The position numbers and the translations under genes are program-made. From a virus (taxonomy: Duplodnaviria > Heunggongvirae > Uroviricota > Caudoviricetes), in the IMG/VR virus record IMGVR_UViG_2585427789_000028, positions 1-15,233 of that record: a DNA stretch of 15,233 nt, one strand, 5' to 3'. Below, piece after piece: positions 7,480 to 15,233 of this stretch; position 1 is the stretch's first letter; each line of letters begins with the position of its first letter. The notes under the pieces were generated by a model. That model did no database searches. It was not told the DNA's origin and was given only the letters and a program-made list of their open reading frames with translations.

Positions 7480-8001
7480 TTACCTAAAAAACCACATATG
7501 GATATCACATACGACCCAGTACATAACCGGATGCCGCCACGGGAATCTTTCGGGACCACCAGGATATAAACTTTTTTCCTTGCTGTACCGGTGAAACTCC
7601 GCCATCACATCGTCAATGGTGACGCCAAGAACCATCTTGCTGTCTTTGCACCACTTGATGAATTGCCCAGGCGACGGCCAGAACGGAGATTCACTGGCGC
7701 GGGCGTGGCGCATACCAGCAGAAACTTGTTCACGGGTTCGGATCCCCCCTTCGGCAAACGCAGCAATCCACTGCTGTTTTGCAGCAACTTCCTGCTCTGG
7801 CGTCTTCAGGTTGGTTACCACTGCCGCCGGAAACAGTTGTTTCAGCTGTTTGAAAAGGGTATCAACAAGCCTCTCTGCTGACATGTTCACCACGTTGTCA
7901 TTGTTGGTGTACTGATGCTCATAACCTGACATGCGAGAAAGGGCTTCTCCGTCACGGTTTTGTATCGCGGTAAAAACGTTGTTCACAAGAAATCCTCCCA
8001 T
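7480..8001 (-). CDS. Lambda P-like replication protein (helicase loader), apparently C-terminally truncated
   Basis: Translation FPAAVVTNLK...WIAAFAEGGIRTREQVSAGMRHARASESPFWPSPGQFIKWCKDS aligns by eye with the lambda P N-terminal half (FPASLANRDQ...WVLAFRENGITTMEQVNAGMRVARRQNRPFLPSPGQFVAWCREE). The ORF ends about 80 residues short of lambda P (233 aa) just before the tailspike. Start codon uncertain. Confidence 0.65.
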   Translation of the reverse strand: MGGFLVNNVFTAIQNRDGEALSRMSGYEHQYTNNDNVVNMSAERLVDTLFKQLKQLFPAAVVTNLKTPEQEVAAKQQWIAAFAEGGIRTREQVSAGMRHARASESPFWPSPGQFIKWCKDSKMVLGVTIDDVMAEFHRYSKEKSLYPGGPERFPWRHPVMYWVVCDIHMWFFR

Positions 8002-8798
8002 GCTTCAGGGCTGTTCCAGTGCGGAACGTTGTTATCAGGTAATGTTGATTGCTTCTGTCTGCTAATCTGCAGCCGCCTTGCCAGCTTCTGCTCCCACTGT
8101 GCCTGATGGTATGCCTTACCCTCAGCCATCCAGTAAATTCTGAACTCTGCAAGTTCCTGTGCCGTTGGCAGACTGTCCAGGTAGATCCCCTGCAATGAGC
8201 TTTTCCGAAGAAAGTCATCTGATGGCCGCCATTGTTCATGCATGACAAATTTGCCTAATTGCCCTGGCCCACCAGGAGGAACAAAGTTATTCATCACGGC
8301 GTTGTTTGCGCCGGGGTCATGATGCACAGAATCCCCGTTTTTTGTCCTGCTCTCCCTCTCTTGGTTAAATGACTGGTTATATGACTGGTTCTGGATCCCG
8401 TTTTTGGGATCATTCAACATCCCGTTTTTGGGATCATTCAACATCCCGTTTTTGGGTATATTCCCGTTTTCGGTAACATTACCGTTTTCGGGTTCATTGC
8501 CCCCCTCCCGGTTGCCTTTAATGTTCCCGTTTTTGGTTATATTAAGAGAGAAAACCCGCACTCTTTTTGTCGCTCCCTTTCTCTCTCCGGTATCTGAAAT
8601 AAGCCCCATTTTCATGAGCGATATAAGCCCGGCCTGCACGGTTTTTTTATTCAGGCAAGTGTCTTTAACGAGGCGTTCTATGCTGGGGTAGCAGAGGTTA
8701 TATTCATCGGCTCTGTCAGCCATCGAGAGCAGTATGAGCTTTAATGATGAGCTACCTGGATCTGTCTCCCAGGCCCAATCTGTTGCATGTCTGCTCAT
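7983..8798 (-). CDS. O-like replication initiator protein containing internal iterons
   Basis: 271-aa ORF with GGAG SD, upstream of and overlapping the P-like gene. N-terminal HTH-like region. The central part is encoded by tandem DNA repeats (protein NGN/PKNG repeats), as in lambda O, which contains ori. Confidence 0.7.
   Translation of the reverse strand: MSRHATDWAWETDPGSSSLKLILLSMADRADEYNLCYPSIERLVKDTCLNKKTVQAGLISLMKMGLISDTGERKGATKRVRVFSLNITKNGNIKGNREGGNEPENGNVTENGNIPKNGMLNDPKNGMLNDPKNGIQNQSYNQSFNQERESRTKNGDSVHHDPGANNAVMNNFVPPGGPGQLGKFVMHEQWRPSDDFLRKSSLQGIYLDSLPTAQELAEFRIYWMAEGKAYHQAQWEQKLARRLQISRQKQSTLPDNNVPHWNSPEAWEDFL
8395..8542. repeat. Iteron array, putative phage replication origin inside the O-like gene
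   Basis: ATCCCGTTTTTGGGATCATTCAAC occurs twice exactly (8395-8418, 8419-8442), followed by degenerate copies with core CCGTTTT(T)GG through about 8542. An additional 10-bp direct repeat ATGACTGGTT lies at 8369-8378 and 8381-8390. Confidence 0.7.
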
Positions 8799-8813
8799 GA
8801 TTAATCTCCGCTA

Positions 8814-9014
8814 TCAGCTTGAGTGTTGTGGGGAGGAATTAATCATGATCTGCTTAATCTCTGCCCTGATGCGACGGTTTGATTCCATGGTGCACTCAAC
8901 ACAGTGTCCGTTGTAAACCCAGCGTTCACTGTCATGTCCATGCTTACATGGTTTTCCGGTGTAGTAGCGTTTAAGTCCGCGCTTTGCGGCATCAATACGT
9001 GTAATGATTTCCAT
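8814..9014 (-). CDS. Small Cys/His-rich (zinc-ribbon-like) protein between the Cro-like and O-like genes; function unknown
   Basis: ORF track gives 8814..9077. Start chosen at the internal ATG (MEIITRID...), the only one with a weak SD. Contains C-x2-H-x-H ... C-x2-C (GKPCKHGH...GHCVEC). Occupies the cII position. Confidence 0.45.
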   Translation of the reverse strand: MEIITRIDAAKRGLKRYYTGKPCKHGHDSERWVYNGHCVECTMESNRRIRAEIKQIMINSSPQHSS

Positions 9015-9117
9015 GGTAAGCCCTGTTATTAGTATTGGGATTACGGTCATTTTGTGCTGACACAAAAAAAAGATCAACCATATTTGGTTTTTTATTACCT
9101 TTGAGGTACGAATAGAT

Positions 9118-9143
9118 ATGAAAAGACCGCCGGGTGGCGGTCT
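9118..9143 (-). terminator. Putative intrinsic terminator downstream of the Cro-like gene (tR1-like position)
   Basis: On the minus strand: AGACCGCC-ACCC-GGCGGTCT followed by TTTTCATAT. An 8-bp GC-rich stem with a short T-run. Confidence 0.45.
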
Positions 9144-9164
9144 ACAGAGGGTTGTGGCTGGATA

Positions 9165-9395
9165 TCATGAGTAGAAGAAGTATGCCAGTTCTGCTTTTGA
9201 GCGCAGCCATTGTCTTGTTTTACAGGCTTTAAAAAGCCCATTCATCAATACCTTACCTGGCATTTTGCGCTTACCTGTTAAGTGAGTCTGGATATAGTGA
9301 CTCGTCGTTCCGGCTTCCTGTGCGAAGGCTTCACGCTCATCCGGAGTAAGTGCAAGCCAGTGCTTTTTGAAATCGAAATGTCCGTTATCGCTCAT
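9165..9395 (-). CDS. Cro-like / YdaS-type small HTH regulator
   Basis: 76-aa ORF divergent from the repressor gene. Translation LALTPDEREAFAQEAGTTSHYIQTHLTGKRKM resembles Cro/YdaS-family HTH proteins. Confidence 0.6.
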   Translation of the reverse strand: MSDNGHFDFKKHWLALTPDEREAFAQEAGTTSHYIQTHLTGKRKMPGKVLMNGLFKACKTRQWLRSKAELAYFFYS

Positions 9396-9549
9396 AGCTA
9401 TTGCCTGATATTTATTTCAGATAATAAATATTCACCCATAAGGTAACAAAAATCAAGGATAGTTACCTATGGGGTGCATTTACCTGTTGGGTAATATTGC
9501 TTTAAATTGAATCATCTACTGATTCATATATGAGGCGATTTTCCAGAAA
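9396..9549. promoter_or_regulatory. Divergent promoter/operator region of the immunity switch with repeated TTACC-N4-GGGT(AAT) palindromes
   Basis: Sites at 9463-9475 (TTACC-TATG-GGGT) and 9480-9495 (TTACC-TGTT-GGGTAAT), plus AGGTAAC at 9441-9447, between divergent Cro-like and repressor genes. Confidence 0.55.
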
Positions 9550-10134
9550 ATGAAAAGTATCCAGGACGTCCGCAGGCAAAATCTCAACGACTTGATCGAC
9601 CGTGAATTCAATGGTGTTCAGACGCGGATGGCTGAAAAACTTGGAACTCAGGCAAATCTGGTAAACCGCTGGGCTCTTGGCAAGAAGGTTATCGGCGACC
9701 AGGTTGCACGAAAAATTGAAGCTGCCGCCAATAAACCCCGTAACTGGCTTGATATTGATCGCTCGCTTTCTCAGGAGGGTTTTCAGCCTGTCGGCCCGAG
9801 TGATATAGGTCAGCTGGCGGCTCACAACCTGGAACGCTGGATGAGCGAAAGCCGCGACCTTTCAACGCAGGGAAAACTACACCGCGCATCCGGCGTCGCC
9901 CAGGTGACAATCAGCCGCCTGTTAAACAATGAGGTCAGCGTTTCCATTTCCACCCTGGAGAATGTTGCATCCGCATTCGGGCGTCACGGCTATGAATTAC
10001 TGATTCACCCGCACGACCCTGCGACCATCAACTATGATCGCTCGCGCTACGCATTGTTACCCGAAACCGAGAAAGCAAAGATCGAAAGTTACATTGAATT
10101 TGTCATCAACCAGAACGAAAAAAACAAACAATAA
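9550..10134 (+). CDS. Prophage repressor candidate with two HTH (XRE-type) domains and no recognisable LexA/S24 peptidase domain
   Basis: 194 aa. HTH-like segments GVQTRMAEKLGTQANLVNRW and GKLHRASGVAQVTISRLLNNE. Sits in the cI position, has its own terminator, and is flanked on both sides by operator-like palindromes. Confidence 0.65.
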   Translation: MKSIQDVRRQNLNDLIDREFNGVQTRMAEKLGTQANLVNRWALGKKVIGDQVARKIEAAANKPRNWLDIDRSLSQEGFQPVGPSDIGQLAAHNLERWMSESRDLSTQGKLHRASGVAQVTISRLLNNEVSVSISTLENVASAFGRHGYELLIHPHDPATINYDRSRYALLPETEKAKIESYIEFVINQNEKNKQ

Positions 10135-10155
10135 AATCATATTTTTCAGTAAGTA

Positions 10156-10179
10156 AGCCGCCTTCTGGCGGCTTTTTTA
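10156..10179 (+). terminator. Rho-independent terminator after the repressor gene
   Basis: AGCCGCC-TTCT-GGCGGCT followed by TTTTTT. Confidence 0.65.
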
Positions 10180-10187
10180 TTGCCTAT

Positions 10188-10287
10188 TCGATTACCTAAT
10201 GGGTAATTTTTTTAACTCATATCTATTGACACCAAACCAGATACGCATAATTATTACCTCAACGGTAACAGACCGAGGTAACAAGTT
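10188..10287 (+). promoter_or_regulatory. Early (PL-like) promoter with flanking operator palindromes
   Basis: TTGACA at 10226-10231, 17-nt spacer, AATTAT at 10249-10254. Operator-like sites ATTACC-TAAT-GGGTAAT (10191-10207) and TTACC-TCAAC-GGTAAC (10255-10270), plus AGGTAAC at 10276-10282. Confidence 0.5.
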
Positions 10288-10440
10288 ATGCAGTGGAAAA
10301 TCATCAACGGTTGGTACTGCGTTACTGCATGCGGATTCATGAGCTGGAAGTTCCGCACCTTACAGGAAGGCATTAAGTGGGCTTTCGTCAGCAAAGAAGC
10401 TCGCGATGTGGCCAACGATAACGAGATATGGGAGGGCTGA
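10288..10440 (+). CDS. Small protein (50 aa), first gene of the early operon; function unknown
   Basis: ATG at 10288 with GAGGT 8 nt upstream; stop TGA at 10438-10440. Translates MQWKIINGWYCVTACGFMSWKFRTLQEGIKWAFVSKEARDVANDNEIWEG. Not in the supplied ORF track (below its length cutoff). Confidence 0.4.
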   Translation: MQWKIINGWYCVTACGFMSWKFRTLQEGIKWAFVSKEARDVANDNEIWEG

Positions 10441-10442
10441 TA

Positions 10443-10742
10443 ATGAACGTTAATCAGCAGAAAAATCTTCAAAAAATCATGCTGGCATTCGACAAGGACT
10501 ACCGCCTGTCAGAACAGCTATATGACCGACAAGTTGAACTGATTGAGAGTATCCGGCTTCATCAACTGGCATCAACTTTCGACGTTGTAACAGTTAAAGG
10601 CGTTCGCCAGGAAGTACTGGAGGCCGCTAAAGACAGCCCTGAGTTCGAAGAACTAATGGATGCCTACCGGCGCGAGGCAATGGCAATTATCGCCCGCTGG
10701 GATCTGGCTGATCAGATTGATGGGCAGAGGGACGCGGCATGA
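10443..10742 (+). CDS. Hypothetical early protein (99 aa) immediately upstream of the recombination genes
   Basis: Start chosen at the ATG with GGAGGG SD (MNVNQQKNL...). Stop overlaps the exonuclease start (ATGA). Confidence 0.55.
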   Translation: MNVNQQKNLQKIMLAFDKDYRLSEQLYDRQVELIESIRLHQLASTFDVVTVKGVRQEVLEAAKDSPEFEELMDAYRREAMAIIARWDLADQIDGQRDAA

Positions 10743-11560
10743 ATCCGGGAATTTATTTCGATATCAGCAACGAGGACTACCACGCCGGTGACGGCGTGAG
10801 TAAGTCGCAGCTAGATATGGTGGCTAAGAACCCTGCCCTTCTGAAATGGGTGAAGGCTGCTCCGGAAGACGAAGAGAAGAAGTCTGCACTGGACATGGGT
10901 ACTGCTCTGCACTGTCTGCTTCTGGAACCTGGAGAGTTTGACAAACGCTTCATCGTTTCACCGAAATTCGATCGTCGGACAAAACAAGGTAAAGCTGACG
11001 AAGAGGCATTTATTCGTGATGTAGCGGATATGGGGATTTCGGTACTTGATGCAGAGCAGTGGCGAAAACTGGAGCTGATGCGTGATAGCGCAATGGCTCA
11101 CCCGGCGGCACGCTGGATGTTGGAAGCACCTGGTTACTGCGAAGCATCAATGTACTGGAACGATGAAGATACGGGTGAGTTGTGCCGAATTCGTCCAGAC
11201 AAATGGCTGAAAGAGCACAACGTGATCGTCGACGTGAAAAAGGTTGCAGATATGGACCGTTTTGCACGCCACATCGAGGAGTTCCGCTACCACGTGCAGG
11301 ACGCAATGTACCGCGAAGGCGCAATGAGGGTTACTGGTCAGCCACATGGTTTTTTCTTTCTTGCCGTGAGCGAAAGCATTGATTGTGGTCGGTATCCGGT
11401 ACGCGTGTTCGAGCTGGATGCGCCGGATGTCGATGCCGGGCACGCTCTGTTCCGCCGGGATCTGAATACCTATCACGAATGCCGCATCAACGATGAATGG
11501 GGCGGAGTGGAAATTATTAAACGCCCTGACTGGGCACGTAAACAGGATATGTACGTATGA
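10739..11560 (+). CDS. PD-(D/E)XK-family recombination exonuclease (RecE-like nuclease domain)
   Basis: 273 aa. Contains IRPD...IVDVKK consistent with a PD-(D/E)xK active site. Translationally coupled to, and directly upstream of, the annealing-protein gene. Confidence 0.7.
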   Translation: MNPGIYFDISNEDYHAGDGVSKSQLDMVAKNPALLKWVKAAPEDEEKKSALDMGTALHCLLLEPGEFDKRFIVSPKFDRRTKQGKADEEAFIRDVADMGISVLDAEQWRKLELMRDSAMAHPAARWMLEAPGYCEASMYWNDEDTGELCRIRPDKWLKEHNVIVDVKKVADMDRFARHIEEFRYHVQDAMYREGAMRVTGQPHGFFFLAVSESIDCGRYPVRVFELDAPDVDAGHALFRRDLNTYHECRINDEWGGVEIIKRPDWARKQDMYV

Positions 11561-12438
11561 GCAATGATATCGCAATCACATCACAACCAGGCGCAACTGT
11601 AGGCACTGCTGCGGCAATCTTCAGCCCCGAGGGCATGAATCAACTGGTGCGTTTCGCGGAGTTGATGTCACAAAGCAAAGCGACTGTACCGAAACATCTT
11701 GAAGGCAAACCTGCCGATTGCCTGGCGGTGACCATGCAGGCGGCACAGTGGGGAATGAACCCTTTCGCCGTGGCGCAGAAAACGCATGTGGTAAACGGAA
11801 CGTTAGGCTACGAAGCACAGTTGGTAAACGCGGTCGTATCCTCTTCCAGCCTGCTGGCGACACGCCTGAATTATCGCTGGAGCGGTGACTGGTCGAATGT
11901 TAACGGCAAAACAGATAAATCACCGAATCTGACGGTAACTGTGTCAGCAGTTCTTAAAGGAGAAGCAGAACCACGTGAGCTTACCATCAGTATGGCGCAA
12001 GCAGGAGTGCGTAACTCTCCATTGTGGGAACAGGATCCGCGCCAGCAACTTGCCTATCTTTGCACGAAACGATGGGCTCGCCTGCACGCTCCTGATGTAC
12101 TTCTCGGTGTTTACACCCCTGACGAATTACAGGAAACGGCACCGCGCGTTGAGCGAGACATTACTCCGCAAATGACTACGGCTGCGGGAATGAACAGTCT
12201 GATCAACGCTAAATCAGTGAAAAAGCCTGATGAGCAAACGCGTAAAGCGGATAGCCGTGAGCCAGAAGAAATGCTGATGGCCTTTACCAGCGCAGCGATG
12301 AATTACAGCACTGTCTCCGAACTGGATAAGGCTTACAAATACATTGCACAAAAACTTTCAGATGATGACGAACTGCTGGCAAAAGCCACCGACGTTTACA
12401 GCGTTCGTCGGGAAGAATTAAACGAAACATCTATGTAA
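11557..12438 (+). CDS. Single-strand annealing protein of the RecT/Red-beta superfamily
   Basis: 293 aa. Segments MQAAQWGMNPFAVAQK and SPLWEQDPRQQLAYLCTKRWARL resemble lambda Bet (ANQYGLNPWTKE, GPWQSHPKRMLRHKAMIQCARL) as recalled from memory. ATGA overlap with the nuclease gene. Confidence 0.8.
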   Translation: MSNDIAITSQPGATVGTAAAIFSPEGMNQLVRFAELMSQSKATVPKHLEGKPADCLAVTMQAAQWGMNPFAVAQKTHVVNGTLGYEAQLVNAVVSSSSLLATRLNYRWSGDWSNVNGKTDKSPNLTVTVSAVLKGEAEPRELTISMAQAGVRNSPLWEQDPRQQLAYLCTKRWARLHAPDVLLGVYTPDELQETAPRVERDITPQMTTAAGMNSLINAKSVKKPDEQTRKADSREPEEMLMAFTSAAMNYSTVSELDKAYKYIAQKLSDDDELLAKATDVYSVRREELNETSM

Positions 12439-12487
12439 CCACCACCGCGGCGCCACGCGCGCCGCACTGCAACCAAGAGAGGTATTT

Positions 12488-12736
12488 ATGAAAGGTGCAT
12501 TAGGTAAGAAGGAACTCCTGGCGGTGGTGCCACTGTCATGGAGCACTATCGACCGTATGGAGCGCGCAGGGGAATTTCCTAAACGCTGGTATATCACCGA
12601 TAAACGCTGCGCATGGAACCGTGATGAAGTTGAGCGTTGGCTTGATGAACGTCAGGCAGCAAGCCCGGCAGAGTTCCAGGGTAAAAAACCTCCTGTTCAG
12701 CAACGTGTATATCGTCCTGTGAGCAACGCGGCATGA
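12488..12736 (+). CDS. AlpA-family small DNA-binding protein (excisionase or transcriptional regulator)
   Basis: 82 aa with GAGG SD. Pattern LLAVVPLSWSTIDRMERAGEFPKRWYI...W..DEVERWL matches the AlpA/phage-excisionase HTH family. Confidence 0.7.
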   Translation: MKGALGKKELLAVVPLSWSTIDRMERAGEFPKRWYITDKRCAWNRDEVERWLDERQAASPAEFQGKKPPVQQRVYRPVSNAA

Positions 12737-12849
12737 GTGTGCTGCTAAGGCACTGGAGCAAATGGTCAGGATGGTACTTATTCCTGGCCTCTGTTTCAGC
12801 ATGGCTTTATCTGCTGGCATTAATTTTCAGAGAGGGTTGGATTAAGTGA
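12733..12849 (+). CDS. Small hydrophobic peptide (38 aa, single predicted TM helix, Trp-rich), translationally coupled to the AlpA-like gene
   Basis: ATG overlaps the AlpA-like stop (ATGA). Translates MSVLLRHWSKWSGWYLFLASVSAWLYLLALIFREGWIK. Stop overlaps the GTG start of the next ORF. Not in the ORF track (below cutoff). Confidence 0.35.
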   Translation: MSVLLRHWSKWSGWYLFLASVSAWLYLLALIFREGWIK

Positions 12850-13145
12850 GAAAGTTAAGCCGACTTGAAAAATATCACATGAACAAGGTTTCAATGCGCA
12901 GCCCTTCAAAGGTTGTTGCCGTTACTCCTGCGGCGATAGAGATCGAAAAACGCGCGATTGAAAGAGAGAAAAAAGGGCAGTTCCGCATTGCCGCCCACCT
13001 TTGGCTTCAGTGTATGGATGTTGCTTCTGGTGATGTTGAACGTGCAAGGATCGCGGTTCGCAGGGACCAATGTATCACAAAAGGTAACGGCCTTCGCCGT
13101 GGCGACTATAGCGGCATAGGATGTTGTGGGGTGGTTTATGACTAA
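12846..13145 (+). CDS. Hypothetical small protein (99 aa), possibly a PerC-like regulator
   Basis: GTG start overlapping the upstream stop (alternative ATG at 12880). The segment EKKGQFRIAAHLWLQCMDVASGDVERARIAVRRDQC loosely resembles PerC/Pch-family regulators from memory; unverified. Confidence 0.45.
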   Translation: MRKLSRLEKYHMNKVSMRSPSKVVAVTPAAIEIEKRAIEREKKGQFRIAAHLWLQCMDVASGDVERARIAVRRDQCITKGNGLRRGDYSGIGCCGVVYD

Positions 13146-13788
13146 GAAATACACACTAATCTATGCAGATCCACCCTGGGCATACCGGGACAAAGCCACA
13201 GATGGTAATCGCGGTGCCGGTTTTAAATATCCGGTTATGAGTGTGCTGGATATCTGCCGCCTTCCTGTGTGGGATTTGGCCGGTGAAAACTGTCTGTTGG
13301 CCATGTGGTGGGTGCCAACACAACCACTCGAAGCACTAAAAGTTGTTGAAGCCTGGGGATTCCGTCTGATGACCATGAAGGGCTTCACGTGGATAAAATG
13401 TGGTAGTCGACAACCAGATAAACTGGTTATGGGGATGGGACACATGACTCGCGCCAACAGTGAAGATTGCCTGTTTGCGGTAAAGGGAAAACTACCTCCG
13501 CGCATTAATGCAGGTATCGTTCAGTCATTTACCGCACCGCGGCTTGAGCATTCAAGAAAACCAGATGTCGTTCGTGAAAAACTTGTGCAATTGTTAGGCG
13601 ATGTTTCTCGCATTGAACTGTTCGCCAGACAGTCGTCTCATGGCTTCGATGTTTGGGGTAATCAGTGCGAAGACCCGGCAGTGCAACTACACCCAGGATA
13701 CGCGTTGGATATTGCCGGATTAACAAATGCATTCAGCAATGCTCCGCTGTCACCAACAGACAACCAGGGGCGGGAGCGTGCAGCATGA
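13138..13788 (+). CDS. N6-adenine DNA methyltransferase, MT-A70-like, with no adjacent restriction endonuclease in the window
   Basis: DPPW motif (LIYADPPWAY) near the N-terminus, typical of adenine-N6 methyltransferases. Start ATG at 13138 overlaps the upstream stop (ATGACTAA); the ORF track's 13126 would be a GTG start. Confidence 0.8.
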   Translation: MTKKYTLIYADPPWAYRDKATDGNRGAGFKYPVMSVLDICRLPVWDLAGENCLLAMWWVPTQPLEALKVVEAWGFRLMTMKGFTWIKCGSRQPDKLVMGMGHMTRANSEDCLFAVKGKLPPRINAGIVQSFTAPRLEHSRKPDVVREKLVQLLGDVSRIELFARQSSHGFDVWGNQCEDPAVQLHPGYALDIAGLTNAFSNAPLSPTDNQGRERAA

Positions 13789-13979
13789 ACAGGGCATCAC
13801 CAGCAGATTTAAGGAAATGCCTTGAAACTGCAAACATGCTTGCACACAGCGGGATCAGGTTTGTTCCAATTCCCGCTGTCACTGATGCTGAATTTGCAAC
13901 ACTGTCAGCAATATTCACAGATAAAATTGAATCACTGGCAGCAGAAGCCGAGATGGAAGAAAATCAGCAGAACTATTAA
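13785..13979 (+). CDS. Hypothetical small protein (64 aa), translationally coupled to the methyltransferase
   Basis: ATG at 13785 overlaps the methyltransferase TGA (ATGA). Stop at 13977-13979, 3 nt from the convergent integrase stop. Confidence 0.45.
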   Translation: MNRASPADLRKCLETANMLAHSGIRFVPIPAVTDAEFATLSAIFTDKIESLAAEAEMEENQQNY

Positions 13980-13982
13980 ACG

Positions 13983-15233
13983 TTATTCCCCCGCCATCCA
14001 CTTCTCAAACTTCGACGGGGAGAACGGAATCAGATCCGTATGCTCCCCGTTAATCCAAGAATCAATCATATCGGCCCACTGCTGCAACATGTAGGCGCGC
14101 TGTCTGGCGTATTCCGCTTTGTTATATACGGCGCGCACACCTTTCTGCTCATGTGCCAGAGCCTTTTCAATCCAGTCTGAAGGATAACCAGCCTCATGCA
14201 ACAACGTACTGGCTGTACGGCGCATATCGTGTACGGTGAAGTCCTGAATATGCTCACCATCTTCATTTATTATTTTCACCGTTCTGTCGATCAGAGAGTT
14301 CAGCGCGGCATTAGATAATGGCTTCCGGAAATTGTAACGACCAGGAACCAGATATTCACTTCCACCAGCGCACATCTGCAACCCGACCAATATATCCTGA
14401 ACCTGTTTAGGCAGGTAAATAACATGCGCCCGGCTTCCCTTCATGCGGTCTGAAGGAATTGTCCATGTCCATTTTTTAAAATCTATTTCATCCCACGTTG
14501 CATTGGTGAATTCGCCCTTACGAACCATAGTGATAAGCACCAGTTTTAAAGCCATTTTCATAGTGCCCATAGCACCAATGGCATCCAACGTGCGGAAGAA
14601 CAGGCCAATTTCTTCTGGTGTCAGTGTTCGCTCTCGTGGTTTAAATATGGCGATAGACGAAGGTTTAATGTCAGCCGCAGGATTAAACAAACCATGACCA
14701 CGGTCATTGGCGTGACGGTATACGCTGCTGATGATCTCCCTGGCCTGTACTGCTGTTGCCCGACCACCGCGTTCGACAATCCGGTCACACAAATCACGAA
14801 CCATCGATGTGGTAATTTCAGCCATCATTTTGTTGCCAAGAACCGGAAGTATGTCACGGTCGATCACCGCCTGCTTCATTGCGCGGGTACTGTCAGCCAG
14901 GATGACGTGTTTCATATAACTGTCGGTATGTACCGCAAACGTCTCGGCACCACGAATTTTTTTGATACCGTCACGTTTAGCCGCAGCCGGCGACTGGCCT
15001 GCTTTAAGCAGCTTCTTTGCAGCAATCAGTTCTTCTCGCGCTTCTGCCAGGCTGATACCGTCACGCCCATACTGCCCGATTACCAGTGTTTCGCGGCGAC
15101 CGTTGATACGGTAGTCATAGCGAAACGAGACCGTGCCTGACGTAAGCACAGCTACATACAGCCCGTCACGATCGGAGACCTTGTACAGTTTGTCCTGCGG
15201 CTTGAGGTTTTTTAATTTTGTATCGGTAAGCAC
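13983..15233 (-). CDS. Tyrosine integrase, P4-like family (partial: N-terminus at or beyond the window edge)
   Basis: 416-aa ORF reaching the window end. N-terminal arm-binding-like sequence LTDTKLKNLKPQDKLYKVSDRDGLYVAVL; C-terminal catalytic region with HDMRRT...LAHE...Y typical of tyrosine recombinases. Confidence 0.9.
   Translation of the reverse strand: MLTDTKLKNLKPQDKLYKVSDRDGLYVAVLTSGTVSFRYDYRINGRRETLVIGQYGRDGISLAEAREELIAAKKLLKAGQSPAAAKRDGIKKIRGAETFAVHTDSYMKHVILADSTRAMKQAVIDRDILPVLGNKMMAEITTSMVRDLCDRIVERGGRATAVQAREIISSVYRHANDRGHGLFNPAADIKPSSIAIFKPRERTLTPEEIGLFFRTLDAIGAMGTMKMALKLVLITMVRKGEFTNATWDEIDFKKWTWTIPSDRMKGSRAHVIYLPKQVQDILVGLQMCAGGSEYLVPGRYNFRKPLSNAALNSLIDRTVKIINEDGEHIQDFTVHDMRRTASTLLHEAGYPSDWIEKALAHEQKGVRAVYNKAEYARQRAYMLQQWADMIDSWINGEHTDLIPFSPSKFEKWMAGE

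Follow-up and report, generated by a model that had tools for sequence, protein, structure and literature searches.

The question raised by this locus is what is encoded by two small genes that head a phage early operon directly upstream of its recombination genes. The locus lies in a DNA stretch of 15,233 nucleotides (nt), positions 1 to 15,233 of IMG/VR virus record IMGVR_UViG_2585427789_000028, which as a whole is called the window below, and the genes are open reading frames (ORFs) of 50 and 99 amino acids, called ORF-A and ORF-B. An earlier note on this DNA, made from its letters, had placed the two ORFs at 10288-10742, had given each a good Shine-Dalgarno (SD) sequence and had located them between an early promoter and an exonuclease/annealing-protein pair. 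All of this was borne out: the coordinates are exact, the promoter lies at 10226-10254, and genes for a DUF3799 exonuclease and a RecT protein follow downstream. The explanation that on balance we favor is that both ORFs are genuine early genes, ORF-B being a diverged lambda Gam and ORF-A a host-directed factor. The ORF-B part is the firmer one. Profile comparisons indicate that ORF-B is quite probably a remote, highly diverged homologue of lambda Gam (PF06064), and by analogy it would inhibit RecBCD, of which we are somewhat less certain than of the homology. The four genes at issue are:

10288..10440, plus strand: ORF-A, 50 amino acids (phiV10 gp39, epsilon15 gp37, PHROG 898), identified by its PHROG match and purifying selection.
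10443..10742, plus strand: ORF-B, 99 amino acids (phiV10 gp38, epsilon15 gp36, PHROG 856), identified by its PHROG match, purifying selection and similarity to Gam.
10739..11560, plus strand: RecE-like PD-(D/E)XK exonuclease, DUF3799 (Pfam PF12684, E 2e-22; PHROG 412 'exonuclease VIII').
11557..12438, plus strand: RecT single-strand annealing protein (Pfam PF03837, E 1.4e-31; PHROG 561).

ORF-A extends from an ATG at 10288 to a stop codon at 10438-10440 and is preceded by the SD sequence GAGGT (10275-10279), 8 nt 5' of the ATG. ORF-B begins with the ATG at 10443 and stops at 10740-10742, its SD sequence GGGAGGG (10430-10436, 6 nt 5') falling within the final codons of ORF-A. An alternative ATG at 10428 would give a protein of 104 residues, but the homologues begin M/V-N-[IV]-Q-Q. 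Only 2 nt separate the ORF-A stop from the ORF-B start, the ORF-B stop and the exonuclease start overlap in an ATGA at 10739, and the exonuclease stop overlaps the RecT start (11557). As the stops and starts of all four genes abut or overlap in this way, their arrangement suggests translation as a single coupled unit.

Both ORFs are real coding genes under purifying selection. PHROG 898 matched ORF-A over residues 1-50 of 50 (E 1.9e-38) and PHROG 856 matched ORF-B over residues 1-99 of 99 (E 4.6e-55), both being families that carry no functional annotation. When codons 1-25 of the window ORF-A were compared with those of four divergent phages (epsilon15, Tyrion, BUCT711 and BUCT554), the proportion of changed synonymous sites (pS) was 0.49-0.76 and that of non-synonymous sites (pN) was 0.016-0.073, from 6-10 synonymous vs 1-4.5 non-synonymous changes. 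For ORF-B the ratio of non-synonymous to synonymous rates (dN/dS), calculated only for pairs with unsaturated synonymous sites, was 0.06-0.20. The conservation of the 5' part of ORF-A reflects selection on the protein rather than on RNA. A nut- or put-like RNA element beneath this part was rejected because the first 25 codons are rich in synonymous changes; the predicted RNA fold of the region was no better than that of shuffled sequence (z -0.65), and Rfam found nothing there, its only matches being sub-threshold ones on the upstream terminator. The Tyrion record annotates an antisense ORF at the place of ORF-A (locus L004, 2405..2617, minus strand), which looks like a mis-annotation because the pattern of synonymous and non-synonymous changes favors the plus-strand ORF-A. 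The phiV10 RefSeq record gives a single fused RecE-RecT coding sequence of 1,761 nt (L001, 5640..7400); the exonuclease and RecT are encoded by separate overlapping genes in the window (10739..12438), AST205, Tyrion, BUCT554, BUCT711 and phiv142-3.

The early clue to ORF-B was that a hidden Markov model (HMM) of its close homologues scored lambda Gam top among 21 early-left proteins of lambda and P22. For profile-profile comparison by hhalign the ORF-B family was represented by alignments of close relatives (A1), of diverse members down to 31% identity (A3) or of only the seven most distant members (A5), and Gam by an alignment of 19 proteins of GamS length (A4). A3 aligned with A4 at a probability of 85.8% (E 5.4e-6, score 37.2), ORF-B residues 32-86 pairing with GamS residues 34-90 in the same order and register. 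A5 gave a probability of 88.8% against Gam (E 2.5e-6) and virtually the same pairing (31-88 with 33-91). As controls, two reversed profiles scored 19.3 and 17.5, and 200 column shuffles gave a mean of 11.9 with a standard deviation of 2.3 and a maximum of 20.5. When A3 was run against the 21 lambda and P22 early-left proteins, Gam alone stood out (24.4 vs at most 15.1), and Gam was likewise the only protein singled out among the early proteins of lambda, P22 and Rac.

Searches of larger sets pointed the same way. A profile search of the PDB (177,635 distinct sequences) placed Gam (5mbv and 2uuz) at ranks 4-5 with E 0.09 (residues 30-86 with 32-90); above it were RESC6 and two designed helical-repeat proteins, the scores of the latter two being sums of sub-threshold stretches only. 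For the family member P0086 the best match among 24,736 Pfam models was PF06064 Gam (E 0.0042), residues 31-94 covering positions 33-96 of the 98 in the profile. In the opposite direction, when the six-frame ORFs of the window and 18 loci, 1,224 in all, were searched with a Gam HMM, lambda Gam came first and ORF-B relatives took ranks 2-10, with E values of 2.6e-5 for the best relative, 0.045 for the window ORF-B and 0.17 for the first unrelated ORF. Among the 482 ORFs of the complete phiV10 genome, and likewise among the 192 of the window, the highest score against the Gam profile was that of ORF-B.

The likeness to GamS (PDB 2UUZ, 5MBV) extends beyond the scores. Positions conserved within each family coincide in the in-order alignment, these being G53/G56, F68/F72, E70/E74 and R77/R81 (ORF-B/Gam), where R77 is invariant only among the close relatives of A1. 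The proteins have 99 and 98 residues, both are acidic (isoelectric points (pI) of 4.71 vs 4.99), and the AlphaFold2 (AF2) model of ORF-B, of low confidence with a predicted local distance difference test (pLDDT) value of 66, is all-helical, with a long N-terminal helix (3-45) followed by helices 56-63 and 66-98. Moreover, ORF-B has the place of gam in lambda, in the early-left operon directly 5' of the genes for the phage exonuclease and annealing protein. The two proteins differ in that they share only about 20% identity and that ORF-B is sub-threshold in Pfam, being recognizable only with profiles built from diverse members. In addition, the N-terminal helix, which in Gam is the plug of the RecB channel, is not confidently alignable and RecBCD binding by ORF-B is a prediction; ORF-B lacks an N-terminal extension of the GamL type, and its partners are a RecE-like or YqaJ exonuclease plus RecT, whereas those of lambda Gam are Exo and Bet. 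Failing the Pfam threshold and passing the profile-level tests, ORF-B is best filed as a putative divergent new member of the lambda Gam family.

ORF-A also occupies a familiar position, that of lambda kil, being the first gene after the promoter and immediately 5' of the Gam-like gene. Residues 1-25 (MQWKIINGWYCVTACGLMSWKFRTL) are near-invariant in phages of E. coli, Salmonella, Klebsiella, Enterobacter and Erwinia, and the C-terminal tail exists in at least two versions. The distant relatives in loci L107 and L108 retain the pattern G-x-Y-x-x-T-x-x-G-L-M-S-W-K-F-x-x-L-x-x-x-I-x-W-A-F. Such near-invariance suggests a conserved host target or partner, and our best guess, weakly inferred from genomic context, is a host-directed early factor. 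Several negative results count against any such assignment. ORF-A had no significant match among the Pfam, NCBIfam and PADLOC models, its AF2 model was unusable (pLDDT 54), and no homology was detected in comparisons with lambda N, Ral, CIII, Kil and Gam, with P22 24, Ral, 17, C3, Kil, Arf, Abc1 and Abc2, or with Rac KilR, YdaE, YdaF, YdaG and RacC.

The more specific proposal that ORF-A is a division inhibitor of the Kil type, or an inhibitor of some other host process (for example, a CIII-like FtsH inhibitor) with a target conserved across Enterobacterales, is a tentative one. ORF-A is close in size to lambda Kil, an FtsZ inhibitor (50 vs 47 residues), and shares with lambda Kil, P22 Kil and Rac KilR its small size and its site immediately 5' of a Gam-type gene in a repressor-controlled early-left operon; the strong purifying selection on residues 1-25 across host genera would fit a conserved host target. 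However, ORF-A resembles none of lambda Kil and CIII, P22 Kil and C3 or Rac KilR by HMM, hhalign or shuffled Smith-Waterman comparison. Against the three Kil proteins hhalign gave probabilities of at most 0.5%, Pfam gave nothing and Smith-Waterman z-scores were inconsistent across family members. Against lambda CIII (PF02061) the HMM score was -0.1 bits and the hhalign probability 0.8% (0.3% for P22 C3). The pI of ORF-A is 6.1 vs 9.6 for lambda Kil. As the Kil proteins have, to our knowledge, no common sequence, gene position is the sole argument for a Kil-type ORF-A.

Other resemblances of ORF-A were tried and discarded. Similarities seen by eye to lambda CIII (MQYAIAGW vs MQWKIINGW) and to Rac YdaF failed statistical testing or had no statistical support, respectively. 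Zinc binding via C11 and C15 was rejected; an essential cysteine pair is ruled out because L108 (RITISG) has other residues at both positions and L107 (CITISG) at that of C15. A Pfam match to 'Phage_zn_bind_5' was given only by P0077, a variant with a fully divergent C-terminal tail that looks frameshifted. A membrane peptide was also rejected, the hydrophobicity being only moderate by a rough estimate and the matches to DUF2985 (E 0.03-0.11) not significant.

Two further proposals for ORF-A seem unlikely to us. One is that it works with ORF-B or with the recombination system. The other is that it is the first example of a new class of tiny early effectors whose 25-residue core (MQWKIINGWYCVTACGLMSWKFRTL) binds a conserved host protein, possibly together with ORF-B as a two-part anti-RecBCD or anti-defense module comparable to P22 Abc1 plus Abc2, ORF-B then being a Gam-fold protein re-targeted to another DNA-end-binding nuclease or immune sensor. 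Abc1, Abc2 and (by description) T7 gp5.9 resemble the present genes in being small early RecBCD modulators encoded beside recombination genes. The P22 proteins differ in having no sequence similarity to either ORF (hhalign probability at most 0.8%). PMC9836394 describes Abc2 as hijacking RecBCD rather than mimicking DNA.

From position, the earlier note had guessed at functions of the Kil, Gam or Abc types. Profile methods support Gam for ORF-B; the Kil idea for ORF-A has gene position as its argument, and no similarity to Abc proteins was found. The note had also seen no likeness to lambda N, Kil or Gam by eye, which is true of ORF-A and, to the eye, of ORF-B and Gam as well, although by profiles ORF-B appears to be a remote Gam homologue. 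Of the novel anti-host or anti-defense factors that it suggested, ORF-A may be one, gene position being the argument; ORF-B more probably belongs, as a diverged branch, to an established family. The structure prediction and remote homology search it had proposed as checks were productive in part: profiles linked ORF-B to Gam, the AF2 models were poor (pLDDT 66 and 54) and Foldseek gave nothing.

Several observations weigh against the assignment of ORF-B to Gam. The window ORF-B itself had no Pfam match even at E <=10 and scored only 10.4 bits against the Gam profile, and the PF06064 cutoff of 25 bits was not reached even by the best family member, P0086 (17.7 bits). With close E. coli-type sequences only, hhalign gave 13% and an alignment that was out of order with Gam. 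The N-terminal helix of ORF-B aligned with that of Gam only at zero confidence, an alignment that puts F16 and Y20 opposite the invariant W15 and Y19 of GamS. Within ORF-B there is also a weak repeat, as one and the same C-terminal helix of Gam is matched by residues 9-42 and again by residues 55-88; the repeat may be an ancient duplication of a helix unit, and part of the Gam signal could come from a generic acidic amphipathic helix. An initial HMMER match of ORF-B 8-42 to Gam 98-132 was rejected as being out of order and better explained by this repeat. Foldseek searches of PDB and BFVD with the monomer model of ORF-B found no match, a monomer being a poor probe for the dimeric Gam. Single-sequence searches with ORF-B (Pfam, NCBIfam, PADLOC and PDB) were likewise negative. 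Lastly, the epsilon15 re-annotation, which cites HHpred for neighboring genes, leaves gp36 and gp37 hypothetical.

The low score of the window protein by itself, the repeat that matches one Gam helix twice and the fruitless Foldseek searches would agree with ORF-B being unrelated to Gam, and so would the overlap of its stop codon with the exonuclease start. ORF-B would then be a helical recombination accessory, a cofactor of the exonuclease or RecT as P22 Arf is of Erf, and its Gam likeness a convergence of acidic helical proteins. We think this improbable. Reversed profiles keep the helical periodicity yet scored 17.5-19.3 vs 37.2, and ORF-B has no similarity to P22 Arf, Abc1 or Abc2. A further argument comes from the distribution of the genes.

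ORF-A and ORF-B co-occur in the same 36 phage records, and both are found at further loci in Klebsiella, Citrobacter and Erwinia genomes, in IMG/VR contigs and in one metagenome contig. All of the additional loci with examined flanks have both ORFs, except L012, whose contig breaks off immediately 5' of ORF-B. When 1.84 billion representative proteins were searched exhaustively with HMMER, only 32 matched ORF-B; 31 of them are short proteins of one narrow family, and the weakest match is a protein of 1,143 residues. In the relatives examined the gene order is constant (repressor, promoter, ORF-A, ORF-B, exonuclease and RecT) with short insertions in some. The recombination module, on the other hand, comes in two versions, a DUF3799 exonuclease with a 293-residue RecT, as in the window, and an exonuclease of the YqaJ/lambda-Exo type with a 340-residue RecT, as in epsilon15, K. 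pneumoniae ATCC 13883 and Erwinia dacicola. Both ORFs are present with both versions. Moreover, in Tyrion, BUCT711 and L108 extra genes separate ORF-B from the exonuclease. Hence, ORF-B is not tied to one enzyme, since it is kept with two exonuclease types and with insertions between. ORF-B also diverges faster than any other gene compared, with 39-54% amino acid identity between host genera vs about 80% for the exonuclease and 56-83% for RecT. Given its retention with two unrelated exonuclease types and its rapid divergence, a host-directed inhibitor fits better than an exonuclease-specific cofactor.

Insertions at this locus also bear on another explanation, that ORF-A and ORF-B are accessory genes that counter or trigger a specific immune system rather than act on RecBCD or cell division. 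Among the relatives the gap between ORF-A and ORF-B is empty or holds an ORF of 57 residues or a highly charged protein of 319-344 residues, and that between ORF-B and the exonuclease is empty or holds an ORF of 45-84 residues. In this the locus looks like an accessory hot spot, and a recent preprint has put forward the recombination loci of phages as reservoirs of unrecognized RecBCD inhibitors and anti-immunity genes (bioRxiv 10.64898/2026.07.10.737580). However, ORF-A and ORF-B do not belong to the variable part of the locus but to its constant part and occur in all relatives examined, PADLOC had no match to them, and the Gam signal already explains ORF-B. We therefore give this explanation little credence, and for ORF-A taken singly an anti-defense role seems equally doubtful. 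A Gam-like ORF-B would itself fit the picture of such loci as reservoirs of RecBCD inhibitors. Of the inserts themselves, the 319-344 residue proteins (L007 2659..3693; L103 and L104 2534..3493; L108 2513..3493) have a long, charged central region rich in Glu, Arg and Ala and no Pfam match, and the 57-residue ORF lies at 4147..4320 of L111. In the second gap, that before the exonuclease, Tyrion carries an ORF of 45 residues with two CxxC pairs (L004 2954..3091), and BUCT711 (L005 2943..3197) and an IMG/VR contig (L108 3803..4030) encode proteins of 75-84 residues with a common 'LRDYFAAKAMQ' motif; none of these three matched Pfam.

Two other candidates for ORF-B were dismissed, a detached N-terminal part of a long RecE (no similarity to RecE 1-600 and no match to PHROG 412) and a relative of RacC (no similarity).

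PHROG 856 is not connected with Gam in PHROGs itself, in the precomputed Pfam domains of the homologues, in NCBIfam or in the phage and E. coli records examined, in every one of which both proteins are 'hypothetical'. None of the papers searched mentions six protein accessions of these genes, and the phiV10, epsilon15, ZX5 and SPC32H papers do not treat them.

How the two genes would be controlled is indicated by the sequence on their 5' side, which contains the following features:

9550..10134, plus strand: prophage repressor with two helix-turn-helix (HTH) domains, homologue of phiV10 gp40 (Pfam HTH_3, PHROG 8).
10155..10184, plus strand: intrinsic terminator of the repressor transcript, an 8-bp stem, 6 of its pairs being G-C, and then a T run.
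10192..10206, no strand assigned: distal operator-like palindrome TTACC-N5-GGTAA, upstream of the -35 element (exact motif match).
10226..10254, plus strand: early-left promoter, TTGACA, 17-nt spacer, AATTAT (10 of 12 consensus positions).
10254..10268, no strand assigned: proximal operator-like palindrome TTACC-N5-GGTAA, abutting the -10 element and the expected transcription start (exact match).

Homologues of the 9550..10134 product are labeled repressor in the phiV10 and epsilon15 records, and overexpression of the ZX5 repressor, which is identical to that of the window, shuts off transcription of the lysis genes (PMC9782041). The stem of the terminator occupies 10155-10174, and the phiV10 record annotates a terminator as well. 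The TTACC-N5-GGTAA motif occurs at 5 sites in the window vs 0.32 expected by chance. Besides the two listed, two lie in the divergent promoter region (9432..9446 and 9480..9494), and the fifth, with one mismatch, lies at 9095..9109, just past the terminator of a cro-like gene, and might contribute to regulation there. In epsilon15, repressor-binding sites of the same motif and half-sites are annotated between the repressor gene and gp37. The palindromes, clustered at both early promoters, are presumably repressor operators, and 10226-10254 is a repressor-controlled early-left promoter, because the flanking palindromes carry the half-sites of the epsilon15 repressor sites.

If ORF-B is a Gam, the locus could work as follows. 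In the lysogen the repressor, bound to the TTACC-N5-GGTAA operators flanking the early-left promoter, would keep ORF-A and ORF-B silent. Upon induction or infection the two proteins would be made first, synthesis of ORF-B being accompanied by that of the exonuclease and RecT. Gam has an extended helix and exists obligatorily as a dimer. By analogy with GamS, the small, acidic and all-helical ORF-B would dimerize and occupy the site at which host RecBCD binds DNA ends; in Gam the N-terminal helix enters the single-stranded DNA channel of RecB (PMC5218532). With RecBCD blocked, linear or rolling-circle phage DNA would be protected and its ends passed to the phage exonuclease and RecT. ORF-A, for its part, may have a conserved host protein as its target.

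Should ORF-B prove to be a RecBCD inhibitor, its activity would explain how the linear DNA of the epsilon15/phiV10 temperate podoviruses survives, and the lambda Gam family would extend well beyond the reach of current domain models. About 10% of sequenced E. coli would then carry a latent trigger for immune systems, retron Ec48 and P2 Old among them, that sense when RecBCD is inhibited, and the operon would provide a natural, tightly packed cassette of Gam, RecE-like exonuclease and RecT for recombineering. A specialist might find a Gam-like ORF-B useful rather than surprising. ORF-A, which is short, extremely conserved and always the first gene expressed, is a cheap and well-defined experimental target.

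By its sequence, the window represents a phiV10/epsilon15-like (Uetakevirus) prophage that is defective and resides at guaA in E. coli, its relatives being the Uetakevirus phages phiV10, epsilon15, SPN1S, SPC32H, Tyrion and BUCT711. The 701 bases around both ORFs (10100-10800) are up to 100% identical to E. coli chromosomes and 97% identical to phage phiV10. They were matched in 563 of 5,426 complete E. coli genomes, in 512 of these over at least 80% of the length. The counterpart in strain AST205, located between yfgI and guaA, is a remnant, only a short piece of prophage. It retains the lysis cassette, the immunity region and the early-left operon, along with genes for an acyltransferase, a tail fiber, a truncated P-like replication protein, a DnaT-like protein and an integrase; neither there nor in the window does the element contain head or tail-assembly genes. 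The element of the window, which likewise sits between yfgI and guaA, still has its lysis, acyltransferase and integrase genes, its immunity region and its early-left operon. In the window the truncated lambda-P-like replication gene (7480..8001) adjoins the tail-fiber gene (4351..7425). The gene for the DnaT-like replication initiator (7983..8798, minus strand) encodes a tandem peptide repeat rich in Asn and Gly, made up of two copies of NGMLNDPK and some related units, and exceeds the AST205 version by 24 nt. Gene 2 of the rightward operon (8814..9014, minus strand) encodes a 66-residue homologue of phiV10 gp42 and epsilon15 gp40 that has no Pfam match and contains a Cys/His-rich motif, C..H.H....C..C; it may be a small zinc-binding regulator.

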